Assembly (NCBI GenBank): GCA_963718915.1
Contig: CAVRAI010000003.1
Location: 780,001 to 812,000, forward strand
DNA: 32,000 nucleotides
From: an uncultured Chloroflexia bacterium
GTDB lineage: Bacteria > Chloroflexota > Ktedonobacteria > Ktedonobacterales > JADMIN01
Direction: 5' to 3'
The notes beneath the pieces are model-generated. The model did not search any database. It worked only from the letters and a program-made list of their open reading frames with translations, and was not told the DNA's origin. Position 1 is the first letter of the stretch. Every line of letters starts with the position of its first letter. Positions 1 to 18,167 of this stretch are shown here, one piece after another. Position numbers and translations under genes: made by a program.

Positions 1-573
1 AATGGCGATACGACCGATGCGCTGGGTGGGCACGGGATCATCCCCACCCACTGGCACGGCTGGAATCAACTGGCGGCGGCTGAGATCAATGGCATGATAG
101 CGTTAGAGAAAGTGACGGTGGCGAACGTGAGCACTATTCCGACAGGTTGGAAAGACGATGGCAAGACGCTGGTGGCGCCCAATGGCGTGCCGGTGGTCAT
201 GGGTTTTCGCGAATATGTGCTGGCTCAGGCGGGAGTGGGTGGCTGGGACGCGAACAACTGGCCGCTGGCGGCGGAGCAGGTGATCGTGAGTGGCAGCGTC
301 GAGCCGGGGAATACGGCGATTGGGCCGGGAAGCAGGCAAGACTTCCGGCTGACCTCGCTGGGCTGGACGGCGAGCCGAAACGTCTATGTGATCTACGTCG
401 GGCAGGATATCCGCGCATTGGAGCAGCAACTCGCCGCGGCGAACGCCCATGTGGCGCAACTGGAGGCGCAGCTTGCCAGCATGCCCGCCCCCGCGCCCGC
501 TGACCCGAAGGCCACGGAGGCGCTTGCCGCGATGGTGGAGCTGGCGAAGGCGCTCAAACTGGTGGCGGCGTAG
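1..573 (+). CDS. hypothetical protein, 5'-partial (open to window edge), Ala-rich coiled-coil-like C-terminus
   Basis: Frame 1 has no stop from base 1 to TAG 571-573. It keeps G/C-rich third positions upstream of the first ATG (94) and there is no SD before 94, so the gene probably starts outside the window. The C-terminus carries LEQQLAAANAHVAQLEAQLA. No family recognised. Confidence 0.6.
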   Translation, partial: NGDTTDALGGHGIIPTHWHGWNQLAAAEINGMIALEKVTVANVSTIPTGWKDDGKTLVAPNGVPVVMGFREYVLAQAGVGGWDANNWPLAAEQVIVSGSVEPGNTAIGPGSRQDFRLTSLGWTASRNVYVIYVGQDIRALEQQLAAANAHVAQLEAQLASMPAPAPADPKATEALAAMVELAKALKLVAA

Positions 574-13798: not shown

Positions 13799-15264
13799 TT
13801 AAAGCTTGATGCCGTATTCTGCCCATCGTTCTGTGACCAGCGCCCTCATCTCGGGTGACATTTCTATATCATCGGGCCAGGGCCGGGGATGTCCTTCCTC
13901 CGGGAACTTGGCCGTCGCGTCCAGGCCCATCTTCCAGCCATACTTTTCGTAGGGCGACGAGTGATCGAGCGCATCCACCGGGCCATCTACCAGCAGCGTA
14001 TCACGCTTCGGGTCAACGTTGTTGCCCACGCGGAAAAGCACCTCATGCATATTCTGCACGTCCACGTTCTCATCGACGACGATGATGAACTTCGAGAGCA
14101 TCATCAGCATCATGCCCCAGATGCCCGCCATCACCTTCTTCGCCTGGCCGGGATAGCGCTTGCGAATCGAGACGACGACGATGTTATGAAATCCGCCCTC
14201 GACCGGCATATTGATATCGACGATCTCTGGCAACACGACGCGCAACAAATGCAGGAAGAAGCGCTCGGTCGCCTTGCCCAGATAGGCGTCCTCCATCGGT
14301 GGTTTGCCAACAATAGTCGTGGCATATAGAGGATTACGGCGCGAGGTGACGGCGGTGATATGCATCACCGGATAGGGTTCGACGGGTGTATAGTGGCCGG
14401 TGTGGTCGCCAAACGGCCCCTCGGGGCGTAGCTCGTCGGTATCGACGTAGCCCTCCAGCACGATCTCAGCCTGGGCGGGCACCTTCACATCCACCGTCTT
14501 ACACTGCACCACCTCGACGCCCTTATGTCGCAGGAAGCCCGAAAACAGCAACTCGTCCACACCGGGGGGCAGCGGCGCGCTGGCGGCGTAGATGCTGGCG
14601 GGATCGGCGCCGATGACGACCGCGACCTCCATCCGCTTCTTGCTCGCCGCCCTGGCCTGGCATCGCGGAAGTGCGCCGCGCCACCTTTGTGAATCTGCCA
14701 GTGCATGCCGACGGTGCGCTCGTCGTAGACCTGGACGCGATACATGCCGATGTTGCGCTTGCCCGTCTCTGGGTCCTTCGAGTGACACATCGTGAGTGTC
14801 AGATACTGGCCGCCGTCTTTCGGCCAGCATTTGAGAATCGGCAAGTGAGCGATGGAGGGCTTGTCGGTGACGACGACCTCCTGGCAGGGCGCGTGGCTGA
14901 CGGTGTGCGGGCCGATGCGCGCCAGTTGCGCCAGTTCAGGCAGCAGTTTCGCCTTTTCGATGATGCCCTCCGGCGGGCGATTCTGCACGAGGTCGAGCCA
15001 CTTCTTGATGCGCGCGCCCAGTTCGTCGAGCGAGGTGACGCCGAGCGCCCAGGACATCCGCTCTTCGCTGCCGAAGAGGTTGATGACGACGGGCATATCG
15101 TAGCCGCGCACGTTCTCGAAGAGCAGCGCTGGCCCGCCAGCCTTGACGACACGGTCGGCGATCTCGGTGATTTCCAGCTCGGCGGAGACGGGCGCGGTGA
15201 TGCGCTGAAGCTGCCCCTGCTTCTCCAGAAACGCTATGAAGTCGCGCAGATCCTGAAACGCCAT
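13799..15264 (-). pseudogene. ubiD: UbiD-family decarboxylase interrupted by a 1-nt deletion (or a sequencing error)
   Basis: The N-terminal half is in ORF 14485..15270 (MAFQDLRDFIAFLEKQGQL...MHWQIHKGGAAHFRDA). The C-terminal half is in ORF 13799..14830 (QARAASKKRMEVAVVIGADP...GPFGDHTGHY...). The frames meet at GAT GCC|CAG, where CC (14659-60) would need to be CCC. Confidence 0.85.
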
Positions 15265-15391
15265 GCGCACCGCTGCCTCTCCGCGATGAGCGCGTCACGC
15301 ATTCGCCGCGTGAACTATACCGCGCCCATCATAGGAAATTATGGGGTGCGGCGAGAAGCAGCGTCAAGGAGGCGGAAGGTATCATTCCTGT

Positions 15392-15712
15392 TCAACAACT
15401 GCCTCTGCGCCGTCTATGTCTCTTGTGGCGTTTATGCTTGTATCGTTCGCGCCGCATTAGCCTGTGCCAGGTATTCAGCTTCCTGATGAGCCATGAATCG
15501 GGCTGGCTGAAGGTCCAGCAACAGCAACAGGTTAACCATGCTCCATTCGGTAGCAGATGAATCACTACACCCGCCGGACGATCACGCCACCTGCCCCAGC
15601 CGTGGCACTGAGGGCAACAATAACCCCTTGTTACGCCTGCGTCGTGTAAATCCTCACAATCAAAGTAGATCGTTCTAAATTCGTCTCGCCACATCCATTC
15701 TTGCGCGTTCAT
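15392..15712 (-). CDS. speculative Cys-rich small protein with poly-basic tail
   Basis: ORF 15392..15778 trimmed to MNAQEW... It contains CCPQCHGWG and LTCCCCW and ends RRERYKHKRHKRHRRRRGSC. No SD, AT-richer DNA, no family recognised. Confidence 0.3.
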   Translation of the reverse strand: MNAQEWMWRDEFRTIYFDCEDLHDAGVTRGYCCPQCHGWGRWRDRPAGVVIHLLPNGAWLTCCCCWTFSQPDSWLIRKLNTWHRLMRRERYKHKRHKRHRRRRGSC

Positions 15713-15876
15713 TTTCGGGTATTCGCGCCCCACCCGATTGCACTTTATAAGTGTTAGCAATTGCCAACATTTTGCCAATCCTCAACCGTACGAAGATACT
15801 GCACGGTTCATCGCTCTGCAAGCCCGCGCAGGCGGCCTTTGCGGCGTAGCCCATAGGCGCGGCTTCAGCCGCCAGC

Positions 15877-16371
15877 CTACTCGCCTTGCTCCTCATCCTT
15901 GCTTCCATCAGGCAATGGCAACTGACGGGCTGCCATTCTTCCCTGCCGCAATGTCTTGTAGTTCTCGCCGCTGACGACCGGATGGCCCGTGCGCGTCTCG
16001 ATGTCACGGCGTGCCGCGCCGCCGACCTCGCCCGCTTCGTGAGCGTCATCTCGTAGCTCCTCGAAGCCCTGGCTGTCGCGTGTCTGATGTAGCTCTGCCG
16101 CCGTTGCCTCCGCCAGCGTGCTCAACGCCAACTCGACGCGGGTCATCGAGTCGCGCAGATTCTGCGCCCGCCCGATATGCTTGATCGCCTGATGGTCGCG
16201 CACGCCCACGTCGAATGTGCCACGGTGCAGCGTATCGGTGAGCGCGGCGAACTGTCGGCCCTCCTGCGCACCGCGCTGCTGCCACTCGTCGGTCAGCTCA
16301 TCGCCGAAAGGAGATAAGCTCAGATTGGCGCTCTCAATGGCCTTATGCTCATCGCTCATAATTTTCGCCAT
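15877..16371 (-). CDS. C-terminal fragment of a Bro-N/DinD-like family protein, expressed (if at all) as a separate ORF
   Basis: GDELTDEWQQRG..NLRDSMTRVELALSTLAEATAAELHQTRDSQGFEE..GGAARRDIETRTGHPVVSGENY matches the C-terminal half of Bro-N/DinD-type proteins as I recall them. Start taken at ATG 16371 (MAKIMSDEH); the ORF is open from GTG 16413. Confidence 0.65.
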   Translation of the reverse strand: MAKIMSDEHKAIESANLSLSPFGDELTDEWQQRGAQEGRQFAALTDTLHRGTFDVGVRDHQAIKHIGRAQNLRDSMTRVELALSTLAEATAAELHQTRDSQGFEELRDDAHEAGEVGGAARRDIETRTGHPVVSGENYKTLRQGRMAARQLPLPDGSKDEEQGE

Positions 16372-16975
16372 CCTGCTTTCGTTATCGGACCACTTGTGAC
16401 AATCGCGCCACACACGCCCTCTACGCCGCTTCGATGAACGCGCTCAACTCTTCAAGTGTTTGGACGCCATTCTTCTCCGCGCTCAACACCAGGGAGAAAT
16501 TGGGGCCTGGCGTGAGAACACCCTTCAGCAGGGCAGTCCGAATCACGCAAAGTACTGGACTACCTACGCCAAATCCACTGATCTCAAACAGGGTCAGGAG
16601 CACACGCTGAATTTGTTCTGGGGAGATTTGCGATAAGACAGAGCTATTGCGCGCGACAGAAGAGCTATTATAGATCGGCTGCTTCGCATCAAGATATTGT
16701 TGCTCCAGAGATTCCAGGACGCGGTGATCGGTCACTTCTTCCAGTAGCTCGAATTGGAAGGCGGCTTCCCCGTATTTGTCCCACGCTTTCTGGAGACGTT
16801 TCGCATGATGGATTCCCCGACGAAGGGCTGCTTTATGCTGATTCAGATGCAAGAATATATCGTAGCTACTCCCGATGTACTGCTCCTGCGTTTGAATGTT
16901 GGTGATCGCATAGATACCGGAATTACGCGTATTCTGGCCATCGGGTAGTTGGCGCTTTTGACGCCTCTTCCAGGC
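16372..16975 (-). mobile_element. putative GIY-YIG homing-endonuclease insertion within a Bro-N/DinD-like gene
   Basis: This segment separates the recognisable N- and C-terminal halves of one protein family. It encodes the nuclease core. I counted 48-52% G+C in two 60-nt lines, against 72% in a housekeeping line. The boundaries are approximate. Confidence 0.45.
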
Positions 16976-17284
16976 CGGTAGCGAAAAGAGGAGAGACATT
17001 ACTGTGGTAAAGTCGGCACAATCCGTTTGGCGCATCTTGCCATCAAGCGCGGGTATCGTTAGCACCTGACAGTTTGCCAGCAGTTGACTAAACCCTTCCG
17101 TTTGCTTAATTCGCTTCAAGTCTGTCCAATACATGCGTGGCCGTGGCGAATCCGTTAGCAGCCCCACCACATCAATCACGCTGAAGAACCAGCGTCCCTC
17201 GTGCCAGACATGCCGAATCTGCGCGGTGGCCTCCGCGTCGAAGATGCTGAGTTGCGCGTCGCCTTGCTGCTGCCCATCTGCCAT
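16421..17284 (-). CDS. Bro-N domain fused to a GIY-YIG homing-endonuclease domain plus an unassigned ~80-aa tail
   Basis: ATG 17284 has GGAGG 8 nt upstream. Bro-N-like region: IRHVWHEGRWFFSVIDVVGLLTDSPRPRMYW. GIY-YIG core: SGIYAITN / YIGSS / RRGIHHAKRLQKAWDKYGEAAFQFELLE / LEQQYLD / IYN. Confidence 0.8.
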   Translation of the reverse strand: MADGQQQGDAQLSIFDAEATAQIRHVWHEGRWFFSVIDVVGLLTDSPRPRMYWTDLKRIKQTEGFSQLLANCQVLTIPALDGKMRQTDCADFTTVMSLLFSLPAWKRRQKRQLPDGQNTRNSGIYAITNIQTQEQYIGSSYDIFLHLNQHKAALRRGIHHAKRLQKAWDKYGEAAFQFELLEEVTDHRVLESLEQQYLDAKQPIYNSSSVARNSSVLSQISPEQIQRVLLTLFEISGFGVGSPVLCVIRTALLKGVLTPGPNFSLVLSAEKNGVQTLEELSAFIEAA

Positions 17285-17393
17285 CGAACCAACCTCCAGA
17301 CTACTCGCCGCTTGTACGTCTGTTCCTTTATACACTGCCTGTACACAGATGTATAGTTGGCAAGCTAGCGTGTCTGGAAGCGAGCGATAGCCT

Positions 17394-18167
17394 TCACTCC
17401 CACTTGAAGGTGAGCGCCGCCGCCGCCAGCAGCACGACAGCCCACGCCGTGAGCAGTAACAGGCTGCCGCCGTGGATGCCCACTGGACTCATTGCCGAGC
17501 GGAGCGCGTCGGAGAGGGCGGCGGCGGGCAGAATCTGCGCCAGCCACGCGATGACTTCCGGCAGGTGATCGGTAGGCAGCACCACGCCGCCAATCGCCAG
17601 GAAGAGAATGAAGAGACCGTTGGCGCCTGCCAGCGTCGCCTCAGCGCGTAGCGTCCCCGCCATCAGCATCCCCAGCCCGACGAACGCCGCCGTCCCAATC
17701 AGCATCACCAGCAGCGCCAGCGGCAGCGAGCCAGTGGGCCGCCAGTCGAAAAAGATGGCGGCGATCAGCACCAGCAGCACTGTCTGCGCCGCCTCGATGG
17801 CCAGCACCGTCACAATCTTGGCGGCAATCAGTCCCCAGCGTGGTAGCGGTGTGCTGCCCAGCCGCTTGAGCGAGCCATAATAGCGGTCGTAGGCGGTGGC
17901 GATACCCAGGCTGACGAGGCTGGTGGACATGATTGCAGCCGTCAGAATCCCCGGCAGCAGGAAGGCGATCTGCGCGCTTTGCGTGCCCGGCGCAATATGC
18001 AGCCACATCGCCAGAAACAGCAGCACGGTCGGAATGATAATCGTGACGAGCAGGCTCTCGCCCCGGCGCAGCGCCATCGTCAACTCGGCGCGCGTCTGCG
18101 CCAGAATCGCCTGGTTCACCGGGGCCGCGCCTGGAGTTGTGGTTGTCTTGGTTGCTGGCGCGCTCAT
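17394..18167 (-). CDS. ABC-2 type transporter permease
   Basis: 257 aa with 6 hydrophobic segments and a typical ABC-2 layout. It lies downstream of an ABC ATPase on the same strand. Confidence 0.8.
   Translation of the reverse strand: MSAPATKTTTTPGAAPVNQAILAQTRAELTMALRRGESLLVTIIIPTVLLFLAMWLHIAPGTQSAQIAFLLPGILTAAIMSTSLVSLGIATAYDRYYGSLKRLGSTPLPRWGLIAAKIVTVLAIEAAQTVLLVLIAAIFFDWRPTGSLPLALLVMLIGTAAFVGLGMLMAGTLRAEATLAGANGLFILFLAIGGVVLPTDHLPEVIAWLAQILPAAALSDALRSAMSPVGIHGGSLLLLTAWAVVLLAAAALTFKWE

Follow-up and report, generated by a model that had tools for sequence, protein, structure and literature searches.

To our knowledge, homing-endonuclease genes that lie outside introns, inteins and phage genomes have seldom been documented in bacterial chromosomes. 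Among the closest described systems are the free-standing GIY-YIG endonucleases (Seg, I-TevI) of T4-like phages (PMC2330249, PMC2988022); the nrdA gene of phage Aeh1, which is split by mobE and in which element-derived sequence joins the host fragments (PMC3045599; mobE, PMC2790892); fractured genes with split inteins, in which a free-standing endonuclease gene sits in the gap between two host open reading frames (ORFs) and which recur in environmental sequences (PMC2677866); and proteins that combine Bro-N or KilA-N with T5orf172 or GIY-YIG domains, together with the ICP1 homing-endonuclease lineage and two domesticated members of its kin, CapR and Odn (PMC8096241, PMC8263062). Here we analysed a stretch of 32,000 nucleotides from an uncultured bacterium of the Ktedonobacterales (Chloroflexota; assembly GCA_963718915.1, contig CAVRAI010000003.1, positions 780,001–812,000), which we call the window and to which all coordinates refer. 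In it, a foreign cassette of 847 bp (16300..17146, minus strand) encoding an I-TevI-type GIY-YIG nuclease has overwritten codons ~47–158 (~340 bp) of a resident chromosomal gene of the Bro-N type, while relatives carry either the intact gene or a different nuclease cassette at the same site.

The genes of interest lie on the minus strand in the order ABC2 permease (18167..17394), ORF1 (17284..16421; 287 aa from an ATG, 304 aa from an upstream GTG), ORF2 (16413/16359..15877), ORF3 and ubiD. ORF2 and the N-terminus of ORF1 belong to one host family, of which ORF2 represents the C-terminal domain. A first-pass annotation made from the sequence had described these two ORFs between ubiD and an ABC exporter, in an AT-richer block, as apparently one gene split by a homing endonuclease; the ORFs are present in the ORF list, and the neighbours and the composition are as it stated. 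For comparison we used L001, a locus in the Ktedonobacterales metagenome-assembled genome (MAG) GCA_036273675.1, where the order is ABC ATPase, ABC2, a single intact 303-aa gene (P0039; L001 8001–8912) and ubiD. When window 15200–17450 was aligned to L001, identity was 90–95% over codons 1–46 and the spacer before them, fell to ~50% over codons 47–107 (the remainder of the Bro-N part; 51% nt and 46% aa identity), vanished over the nuclease, the following spacer and a short ORF2 leader, and returned at 82–92% from 16304/16299, where the ORF2 body begins with ELTDEW. Synonymous divergence (dS) from L001 rises from 0.39 at the 5′ end to saturation in the Bro-N remainder and is 0.8 beyond. With intact alleles and with alleles carrying a second nuclease subtype (described below), homology ends at 17151/17146 and restarts at 16299–16304. 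Composition changes at the same places: the G+C content of 16300–17146 is 50–53.5%, and that of third codon positions (GC3) is 56–60%, sharply bounded against 76–83% in the neighbouring resident segments. Segment by segment, GC3 is 82.6% in ABC2, 76.1% in ORF1 codons 1–46, 57.4% in the Bro-N remainder, 56.0% in the GIY-YIG domain, 59.3% in the tail, 60.0% in the ORF2 leader (G+C 50%), 77.3% in the C-terminal core of the host protein (C-core) and 80.9% in ubiD. The coincidence of identity breaks and GC3 steps therefore delimits the foreign block to 16300–17146, which comprises, on the minus strand, the Bro-N remainder, a linker, the GIY-YIG domain, a helical tail, a stop codon, a spacer and the ORF2 leader.

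The event was thus a replacement with loss of ~51 host codons rather than a simple insertion. Uninterrupted one-ORF alleles, for which the first-pass annotation had proposed a search, do exist at the ABC2–gene–ubiD site (L001–L008, L013 and L015, with flanks ~80–93% identical to those of the window; 79.6% for the L015 ABC2), and to this extent the idea of an invaded gene holds. The picture of a gene cleanly split in two requires amendment on both sides of the nuclease: ORF1 codons 47–107 are themselves cassette-derived (51% nt identity to L001, low GC3, covariation with the nuclease), and ORF2 opens with 20 codons that came with the cassette and are not resident. The residues said to join the two halves in intact homologues are indeed absent, although they number ~51 (108–158) rather than ~40. 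The cassette has none of the marks of a transposon or insertion sequence (terminal inverted repeats, target-site duplication, transposase or integrase); no terminal repeats occur at its borders, and the nuclease is its sole protein.

ORF1 is accordingly a chimera in which the resident promoter and first 46 codons are joined to the cassette nuclease. The intergenic region upstream (17285..17393, minus strand) is 87% identical at the nucleotide level to the spacer of the intact alleles L001 and L002 and presumably holds the resident promoter and ribosome-binding site that now drive ORF1; a promoter and terminator scan returned nothing beyond shuffle expectation. The resident 5′ end of the host gene, codons 1–46 (MADGQQQGDAQLSIFDAEATAQIRHVWHEGRWFFSVIDVVGLLTDS; 17147..17284, minus strand), shows 90–92.5% nt identity to every syntenic allele, whether or not a nuclease is present, with a ratio of non-synonymous to synonymous divergence (ω) of 0.05 against L001. 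It is followed by the cassette-borne Bro-N remainder, codons 47–107 (TDCADF ... SLLFSLPAWK; 16964..17146, minus strand), and a basic linker, codons 108–120 (RQKRQLPDGQNTR; 16925..16963, minus strand), which is predicted to be disordered (predicted local distance difference test score (pLDDT) <50 at residues 108–119). The Bro-N-like N-terminus reported in the first-pass annotation is supported by way of relatives: Pfam Bro-N (PF02498) gave no match on the ORF1 N-terminus at E ≤ 0.1, but Ktedonobacterales proteins of ~300 aa with 67% identity to its first 106 aa score 29–31 bits on this model (cutoff 25.6). Since the intact homologues pass Pfam Bro-N, the assignment rests on homology and not on the hidden Markov model itself. 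The same part of ORF1 matches the PADLOC PDC-S13 profile (E = 6.8e-26), and the α/β topology of residues 24–99 is the same in the AlphaFold2 models of ORF1 and of the intact protein. The remark that no Met intervenes between the Bro-N start and the GIY motif applies from residue 96 onwards; two Met lie inside the Bro-N part.

The catalytic domain of ORF1 (codons 121–207; 16664..16924, minus strand) belongs to the GIY-YIG superfamily, as first proposed from its motifs, and to the I-TevI-like homing-endonuclease class. In the 304-aa form, aa 139–222 match PF01541 with 35.7 bits (cutoff 22.6; E = 1.1e-8), the NCBIfam model TIGR01453 ‘group I intron endonuclease’ is marginally above its cutoff (58.6 against 56.05 bits), PADLOC ‘HEase’ models recognize the nuclease (PDLC03701, E = 8.2e-12) and phmmer aligns ORF1 with the I-TevI catalytic domain (1mk0/1ln0, E = 4e-6). 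An AlphaFold2 model built with 25 homologues (mean pLDDT 78) is divided into an α/β N-terminal domain (24–99), the disordered basic linker (108–119), the GIY-YIG domain (121–205; pLDDT 85–94) and a four-helix tail (222–286). The modelled domain has the GIY-YIG fold, a sheet of three strands with helices at its sides, and in Foldseek searches it resembles 1ln0 and 1mk0 (E = 3e-6, template-modelling (TM) score normalized to the target 0.83–0.85, root-mean-square deviation (rmsd) 1.8–2.1 Å). R27A is a catalytically inactive I-TevI variant, and the 1ln0 chain sequence has Ala at this position. ORF1 retains the equivalents of Y6, Y17, H31 and H40 in the HMMER alignment to 1mk0/1ln0 and those of E75 and N90 as assigned from the family alignment, and departs from the complete I-TevI catalytic set at R27, which is replaced by His (codon 146, CAT; 16847..16849, minus strand). 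All 31 other family members listed have Arg here. Because the catalytic Arg has become His, this copy is, judging from its sequence, probably attenuated or a dead relic that has been fixed in its host. Compared with L014 and L009 (two loci that carry the same cassette), ω is 0.23–0.28 for the nuclease, 0.12–0.24 for the Bro-N remainder and 0.17–0.38 for the tail, and the value for the nuclease argues for protein-level selection on this module in the past.

The tail (codons 208–287 and the stop; 16421..16663, minus strand) has no fold match in the PDB when its AlphaFold2 model is searched with Foldseek, and phmmer against 1.84 billion representative proteins recovered only this fusion family and spurious repeat proteins. 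A free-standing ancestor composed of the GIY-YIG domain and tail was considered as a candidate and set aside, such a form being missing from the same search. The tail is possibly a DNA-binding or oligomerization module.

The resident gene is, by sequence, a member of a ~300-aa Bro-N/DinD-like/DdrC-like family corresponding to the candidate defence family PDC-S13; PDC families are candidates that occur inside known defence systems (bioRxiv 10.1101/2024.01.29.577857). The intact P0039 matches PDC-S13 (PDLC04920) over positions 11–274 of 286 (E = 4.6e-105). In the window the profile is matched at positions 11–99 by ORF1 and 153–274 by ORF2, positions 100–152 are missing and no full-length match is found; the window therefore holds a disrupted family member. 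The label ‘DinD’ for relatives comes from source annotation only, and P0039 scores 16.4 bits against a threshold of 242 on the DinD equivalog NF008573, matching in the C-terminal part only (E = 0.004). Its AlphaFold2 model (pLDDT 81) is predicted to resemble the DNA-damage response protein DdrC of Deinococcus radiodurans (7qvb, 7udi and 8u0g; Foldseek E = 6.5e-6, probability 1.0), in which a winged-helix domain at the N-terminus precedes a helical bundle at the C-terminus (7qvb, 7udi), yet with TM scores of only 0.36–0.48 and an rmsd of 13 Å over 243 columns. This likeness, from predicted structure only, would tie the PDC-S13 and ‘DinD-like’ annotations to a DNA-break-binding fold. In the model of the intact protein, the ~51 residues missing from the window (108–158) form helices 106–125 and 127–141 and most of 145–167, and the replaced segment contains the most conserved motif of the family, IQSIPSPKAEPxKQWLAxVGxERL.

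ORF2 consists of a cassette-derived leader and the resident C-terminal domain, translated separately from ORF1. Between the ORF1 stop and the ORF2 start lies a cassette-borne spacer (16360..16420, minus strand), followed by the 20-codon leader (MSDEHKAIESANLSLSPFGD; 16300..16359, minus strand) that supplies the ATG; spacer and leader together are 80% identical in L009, 76% in L014, and absent from intact alleles. The start conserved among homologues is this ATG at 16359, 61 nt past the stop, and not the GTG 7 nt after it from which ORF2 had first been drawn. The leader is conserved in split alleles (L014, MSDYGKAFENSNLGLPPFGD; P0129; P0132) and by eye resembles the N-termini of downstream gene B of L011 (..SASITLPFDDG..) and of P0009 (MSDEHGSAQEPAAIALFDDE). 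The ORF2 body (ELTDEWQQRG to the stop; 15877..16299, minus strand) is 84–88% identical to syntenic alleles at the nucleotide level and matches PDC-S13 positions 153–274; it corresponds to the C-terminal helical-bundle domain (helices 174–284, high confidence) of the intact-protein model. ORF2 shares 87–93% identity with residues ~159–290 of intact proteins, in agreement with the first description of it as the C-terminal half of the same family. For the C-core, ω ranges from 0.04 to 0.09 (0.045 between the window and L014, two split alleles separated by a dS of 0.66; 0.086 against L009), although recombination with intact alleles could import sequence that had already been under selection. At least three different junction types each place an ATG ahead of the C-core. 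Together, the C-core ω and the recurrent ATG argue for a stand-alone C-terminal product, and the domain appears to be kept by selection as such. In P0139 (171 aa), 15 N-terminal residues (MSDDDQATPDVAQQG) are joined straight to ..IVIRDELTNEW.. of the C-terminal half, 5 residues upstream of the window junction and with possible ‘QG’ microhomology. P0139 was at one stage taken for a nuclease-loss allele; the tandem loci described below led us to drop this idea and to re-read it as what looks like another, independent deletion of the Bro-N and middle regions in a downstream gene.

Scans of species-representative genomes and metagenomes with the nuclease profile identified 13 loci, only 3 of them in the species-representative genomes, and the taxonomic spread is consequently poorly sampled. 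Among 25 fusion homologues, the Bro-N remainder, GIY-YIG domain and tail co-vary as a unit, and residues 1–46 segregate independently. Relative to ORF1, P0013–P0015 are 93–98% identical over residues 1–46 and 46–51%, 53–55% and 40–41% identical over the Bro-N remainder, GIY-YIG domain and tail, respectively, whereas P0004 and P0005 are 75–81% identical over the cassette segments and only 51–53% over the N-terminus. The Bro-N remainder of the window has 80–82.5% nt identity to those of the nuclease-bearing L014 and L009. L009 has a cassette of the window subtype, joined to ORF2 at the same point (..SPFDD/ELT.., the slash marking the junction), in a different gene neighbourhood; between the window and L009, dS is 0.32–0.67 for the cassette segments and leader, 1.7 for codons 1–46 and 2.5 for the C-core, and the cassette has been transferred into flanks that are only 59–68% identical at the nucleotide level. 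In L026, L028 and L030 this ABC2-adjacent site is taken by the second nuclease subtype (~54% aa identity). In all three, the match to the window breaks off at 17151 and picks up again at 16299–16301, and the downstream ORF starts with MPN/ELTEEW, 12 nt past the nuclease stop. The ABC2 gene of the window is closer to that of the cassette-free L001 (90.3%) than to that of the cassette-bearing L014 (85.7%). Presence and absence are therefore polymorphic at the ABC2–ubiD site (the gene is intact in L001–L008, L013 and L015 and a cassette is present in the window, L014 and L026–L030), three allelic states coexist at one site, and the history of the cassette is discordant with that of the flanks: segment identities, dS and sliding identity all show mosaic flanks and a cassette younger than its flanks.

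Every full-length nuclease copy found has the Bro-N part in frame upstream, and most adjoin a family gene or its remnant. What lies downstream of the fusion ranges from a complete ~300-aa family gene 12 nt past the stop (L011, L020), through a gene lacking only the Bro-N domain (P0202, downstream of P0027) and the C-core alone (window, L014, L009, L026), to short remnants (L012, ..IIQSIPSPKVA.., degenerate; L016; L018) or nothing (L017, L022). Remnants ending at residue ~108 were considered as a mark of cleavage, an idea that was rejected on finding that those of L016 and L018 run to ~121. A tandem layout, with a self-contained fusion gene upstream of a complete family member, is found in L011, L010 and L031. 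Nuclease copies also decay: the tail is frameshifted in L010, P0008, P0016 and P0028 are truncated and the window copy has the Arg-to-His substitution. In L010 (5590–7353; a Chloroflexia MAG), the frameshifted tail reads through into the complete family gene to give a 587-aa ORF, which reflects either decay or faulty assembly. The MAG Ktedonobacterales LS_FP_2_bin.4 has the nuclease fusion twice, in diverged form and on separate contigs (L011 and L012). In L031 (2601–4132), P0098 is a fusion of Bro-N with another nuclease of the superfamily, T5orf172/MUG113, at the same Bro-N boundary. The gene immediately downstream shares 4 nt with P0098 and encodes a protein of 290 aa with a complete Bro-N (50% identity to P0039 residues 1–127) and a different C-terminus.

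By analogy, the cassette would work most like the free-standing endonucleases of T4-like phages. It shares with Seg and I-TevI the catalytic class (TIGR01453/PF01541; I-TevI fold, TM 0.85), a composition more AT-rich than that of the host, a site that is occupied in some genomes and empty in others, flanks with the mosaicism that co-conversion could leave, and decayed copies. In those proteins an N-terminal nuclease is followed by zinc-finger or helix-turn-helix modules, whereas in ORF1 the nuclease is internal, with Bro-N before it and a novel helical tail after it; moreover, its reading frame continues that of the 5′ end of the invaded gene, the R27 position is taken by His, and it resides in a chromosomal gene of a bacterium (Ktedonobacterales) rather than in a phage. 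The effect on the host gene seems most similar to the splitting of Aeh1 nrdA by mobE: an endonuclease gene lies inside a host gene, two fragments are translated separately, element sequence becomes a new fragment end (here the 20-codon ORF2 leader) and the downstream fragment is under purifying selection. However, MobE is of the HNH type and unfused to the upstream fragment, and Aeh1 loses no host codons and rebuilds an active enzyme from the fragments, whereas the window has lost ~51 codons (three predicted helices) and its upstream domain is partly replaced by a diverged copy. The fractured genes with split inteins share the two host ORFs with an endonuclease gene in the gap; unlike them, the window has no intein halves, its nuclease forms one protein with the upstream fragment, and part of the host gene is deleted. 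The phage and viral Bro-N/KilA-N fusions offer a similar pairing of an N-terminal Bro-N-type DNA-binding domain with a GIY-YIG-superfamily nuclease, and the ICP1 lineage a precedent for chimeric nucleases gaining a new DNA-binding domain. These are phage or satellite genes, in contrast to the window family, which lies inside a chromosomal Bro-N/DinD-like gene that also has empty-site alleles, or in tandem with such a gene, and has a nuclease of the classical I-TevI type with a family-specific tail. A new Bro-N nuclease architecture, the other possibility raised at first pass, would not be new as a combination of domains, the co-occurrence of Bro-N/KilA-N with GIY-YIG/T5orf172 having been described already (PMC8096241); new are the chromosomal setting in Ktedonobacterales, the replacement rather than insertion, the recoded piece of a host domain fused to a nuclease, the two subtypes at one site and the tail.

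Several explanations of the locus were weighed. An assembly or binning artefact joining two unrelated sequences would be in keeping with a metagenome-type assembly whose neighbouring ubiD is frameshifted, but it is extremely improbable, as the same arrangement and junctions occur in independent assemblies and samples (L014, L009 and P0132; subtype 2 in L026–L030) and the frames are intact and under purifying selection. Hardly more probable is an intron- or intein-encoded endonuclease whose removal would restore one intact protein, an idea to which the name of TIGR01453 (just over its cutoff) and the continuity of frame with the upstream coding sequence lend themselves: Rfam gave no group I intron over the window at the gathering threshold or over 15200–17450 at E ≤ 10 (where only a weak CRISPR-DR28 and a chance snoRNA match appeared), no Hint/intein Pfam domain is present, and a stop codon, a 61-nt spacer and a conserved new start part ORF1 from ORF2. 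With ~51 codons missing from the locus, both the splicing envisaged in the first-pass annotation and simple complementation of two exact halves are excluded. The possibility that a vertically inherited two-gene operon is ancestral, the intact single gene being derived or another paralogue, gains something from the recurrence of the two-ORF arrangement down to 43% identity, and the window and L014 could share the arrangement by descent. We nevertheless consider it very unlikely, since syntenic intact alleles with flanks of ~80–93% identity (79.6% for the L015 ABC2) break off at the cassette borders, the GC3 step speaks for a foreign origin, flanks and cassette are phylogenetically discordant and the ABC2 of the window is nearer to that of a cassette-free allele than to that of L014. 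Intact alleles at the same site in close relatives likewise contradict an old and fixed architecture, the outcome by which the annotation had said that its reading could fail. A more substantial alternative, possible although we hold it to be the less probable course of events, is effector swapping in a defence-like gene. Bro-N would be the sensor or DNA-binding module and GIY-YIG or T5orf172/MUG113 alternative effectors that take the place of the DinD/DdrC-like C-terminal part; the three allelic states would be exchanged by homologous recombination at conserved blocks under diversifying selection, the nuclease would serve the cell (for example, against phage DNA) and ORF2 would be a partner or leftover. 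The full-length PDC-S13 match of the intact gene fits such swapping, as do the variable islet (with DUF4145 among the cargo of L014, two small genes in L015 and ORF3 in the window), the joining of two nuclease families at one Bro-N boundary (P0098), purifying selection on the Bro-N remainder and nuclease, the family-wide fusion without a detected free-standing GIY-YIG–tail form and the recurring tandem layout with a complete family gene. Against it, PDC-S13 is a candidate only (bioRxiv 10.1101/2024.01.29.577857), the nuclease belongs to the I-TevI/seg homing class, movement into flanks of 59–68% nt identity would be difficult unless a double-strand break stimulated it, decay has struck the downstream family gene repeatedly and independently and nuclease copies as well, as would be expected of a selfish element, and the catalytic Arg is lost in the window copy.

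Overall, we favour, with somewhat better than even confidence, a homing-endonuclease-type cassette or a relic of one. That a foreign, sharp-bordered cassette with an I-TevI-class nuclease replaced the middle of a resident gene and has been horizontally exchanged, and that empty-site and alternative-cassette alleles exist, is shown by the data; that the nuclease drives the exchange, where it would cut and what ORF2 does we infer. The homing reading is preferred on account of the nuclease class, the 59–68% identical flanks (into which transfer is hard without a double-strand break), the multiple copies per genome, the constant association with one gene family and the decay series. A number of observations weigh against it. 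Ordinary homologous recombination in a variable defence-like locus could give the same mosaic, cleavage, target site and unidirectional conversion all being inferred. Window and L014 have similar dS (cassette 0.56, C-core 0.66, ABC2 0.44), so shared vertical descent of these two is possible. The Bro-N remainder is always present and under purifying selection, which fits a dedicated sensor–effector protein equally well. Canonical GIY-YIG homing endonucleases have an N-terminal catalytic and a C-terminal DNA-binding domain and no host-domain fusion. The tandem layout of L011, L010 and L031 is unexpected from simple homing, the right-hand junction is identical within a subtype, meaning that crossovers always fall there or that another constraint operates, and the loss of the catalytic Arg in the window copy counts here as well.

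If homing is nonetheless correct, the nuclease would cut cassette-free alleles or paralogues somewhere within the segment that is replaced (codons 47–158 of the intact allele), and the break would be repaired from a cassette-bearing copy, with crossovers in the two most conserved flanking blocks, WFFSVIDVVG and the start of ELTxEWxxRG. Cassette-bearing alleles would be immune, the segment having been deleted or recoded. We hypothesize that both the cleavage specificity, with a target in codons 47–158, and repair copying would be seen with a cassette-free allele. As for deeper ancestry, a self-contained fusion may have lain in tandem upstream of a complete family gene, which then would have lost its own Bro-N and middle region before the derivative spread. 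A broader proposal, which we think rather unlikely, is that the host gene, as a DNA-break-binding or defence-candidate gene, is a dedicated habitat of Bro-N-guided GIY-YIG-superfamily nucleases and not the scene of a one-off invasion. This DdrC/DinD/PDC-S13-like gene may house a three-state cassette system with two or more GIY-YIG subtypes and one of the T5orf172 type, in which the recoded host DNA-binding domain may guide targeting and also confer built-in immunity, and the host C-terminal domain may be left expressed as a selected stand-alone partner. If this were true, the nuclease and the split host protein would form a new functional pair, and a selfish element would have been co-opted into, or would be parasitizing, a DNA-damage or defence pathway, with intact and nuclease alleles maintained by balancing selection.

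One locus in public data thus combines an empty site, two cassette subtypes with identical borders and recombinant flanks, and the same locus family also contains frameshifted and truncated copies, a catalytic-site substitution and progressive decay of the host gene, so that the homing cycle of invasion, fixation and decay becomes directly testable in Chloroflexota. The unusual targeting layout (Bro-N, an I-TevI-type nuclease and a novel helical tail) might be drawn on for new modular nucleases with site specificity, and split alleles are natural domain-dissection experiments for a PDC-S13 candidate family with a predicted DdrC-like fold. For annotation, ‘hypothetical proteins’ of the ORF2 type and GIY-YIG calls at such loci represent pieces of a disrupted gene and a mobile cassette.

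The surroundings of the cassette show further changes. The ubiD gene (13799–15270, minus strand) is broken into two overlapping ORFs of 261 and 343 aa; relative to L001 ubiD, a 2-nt deletion and a 1-nt insertion lie 14 nt apart (near 14656 and 14642), giving a net frameshift, and the split reflects either a pseudogene or faulty assembly. Just beyond the ORF2 stop, in a GC-rich segment (15820–15843, minus strand), Rfam gave a match to CRISPR-DR28 below its threshold (25 against 35 bits, E = 0.13); with no repeat array, it is probably a chance match or a hairpin. Between ORF2 and ubiD is ORF3 (15392..15733, minus strand; 113 aa from a GTG), a small Cys-rich ORF (CCPQCHGWG...CCCCW) with a strongly basic tail and a GC3 of 57%. 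It had no homologue in a search of 5.8 billion proteins and no Pfam or PADLOC match, and it is absent from L001, where the spacer between the gene and ubiD is 137 bp; DNA comparison revealed a 116-aa homologue in L015 (3969..4319). ORF3 represents another low-GC insertion into this islet, independent of the nuclease cassette and outside it. Among relatives the spacer between the host gene and ubiD is a variable islet: in L014 (2720–4089) it holds a DUF4145 gene and a 276-aa gene, in L013 (6789–8053) two ORFs, and in L015 (3277–3944) a pair of genes of 79 and 85 aa ahead of the ORF3 homologue. Between that pair and the ORF3 homologue, L015 retains an 85-nt remnant of the 3′ end of another allele, 93% identical to the window.

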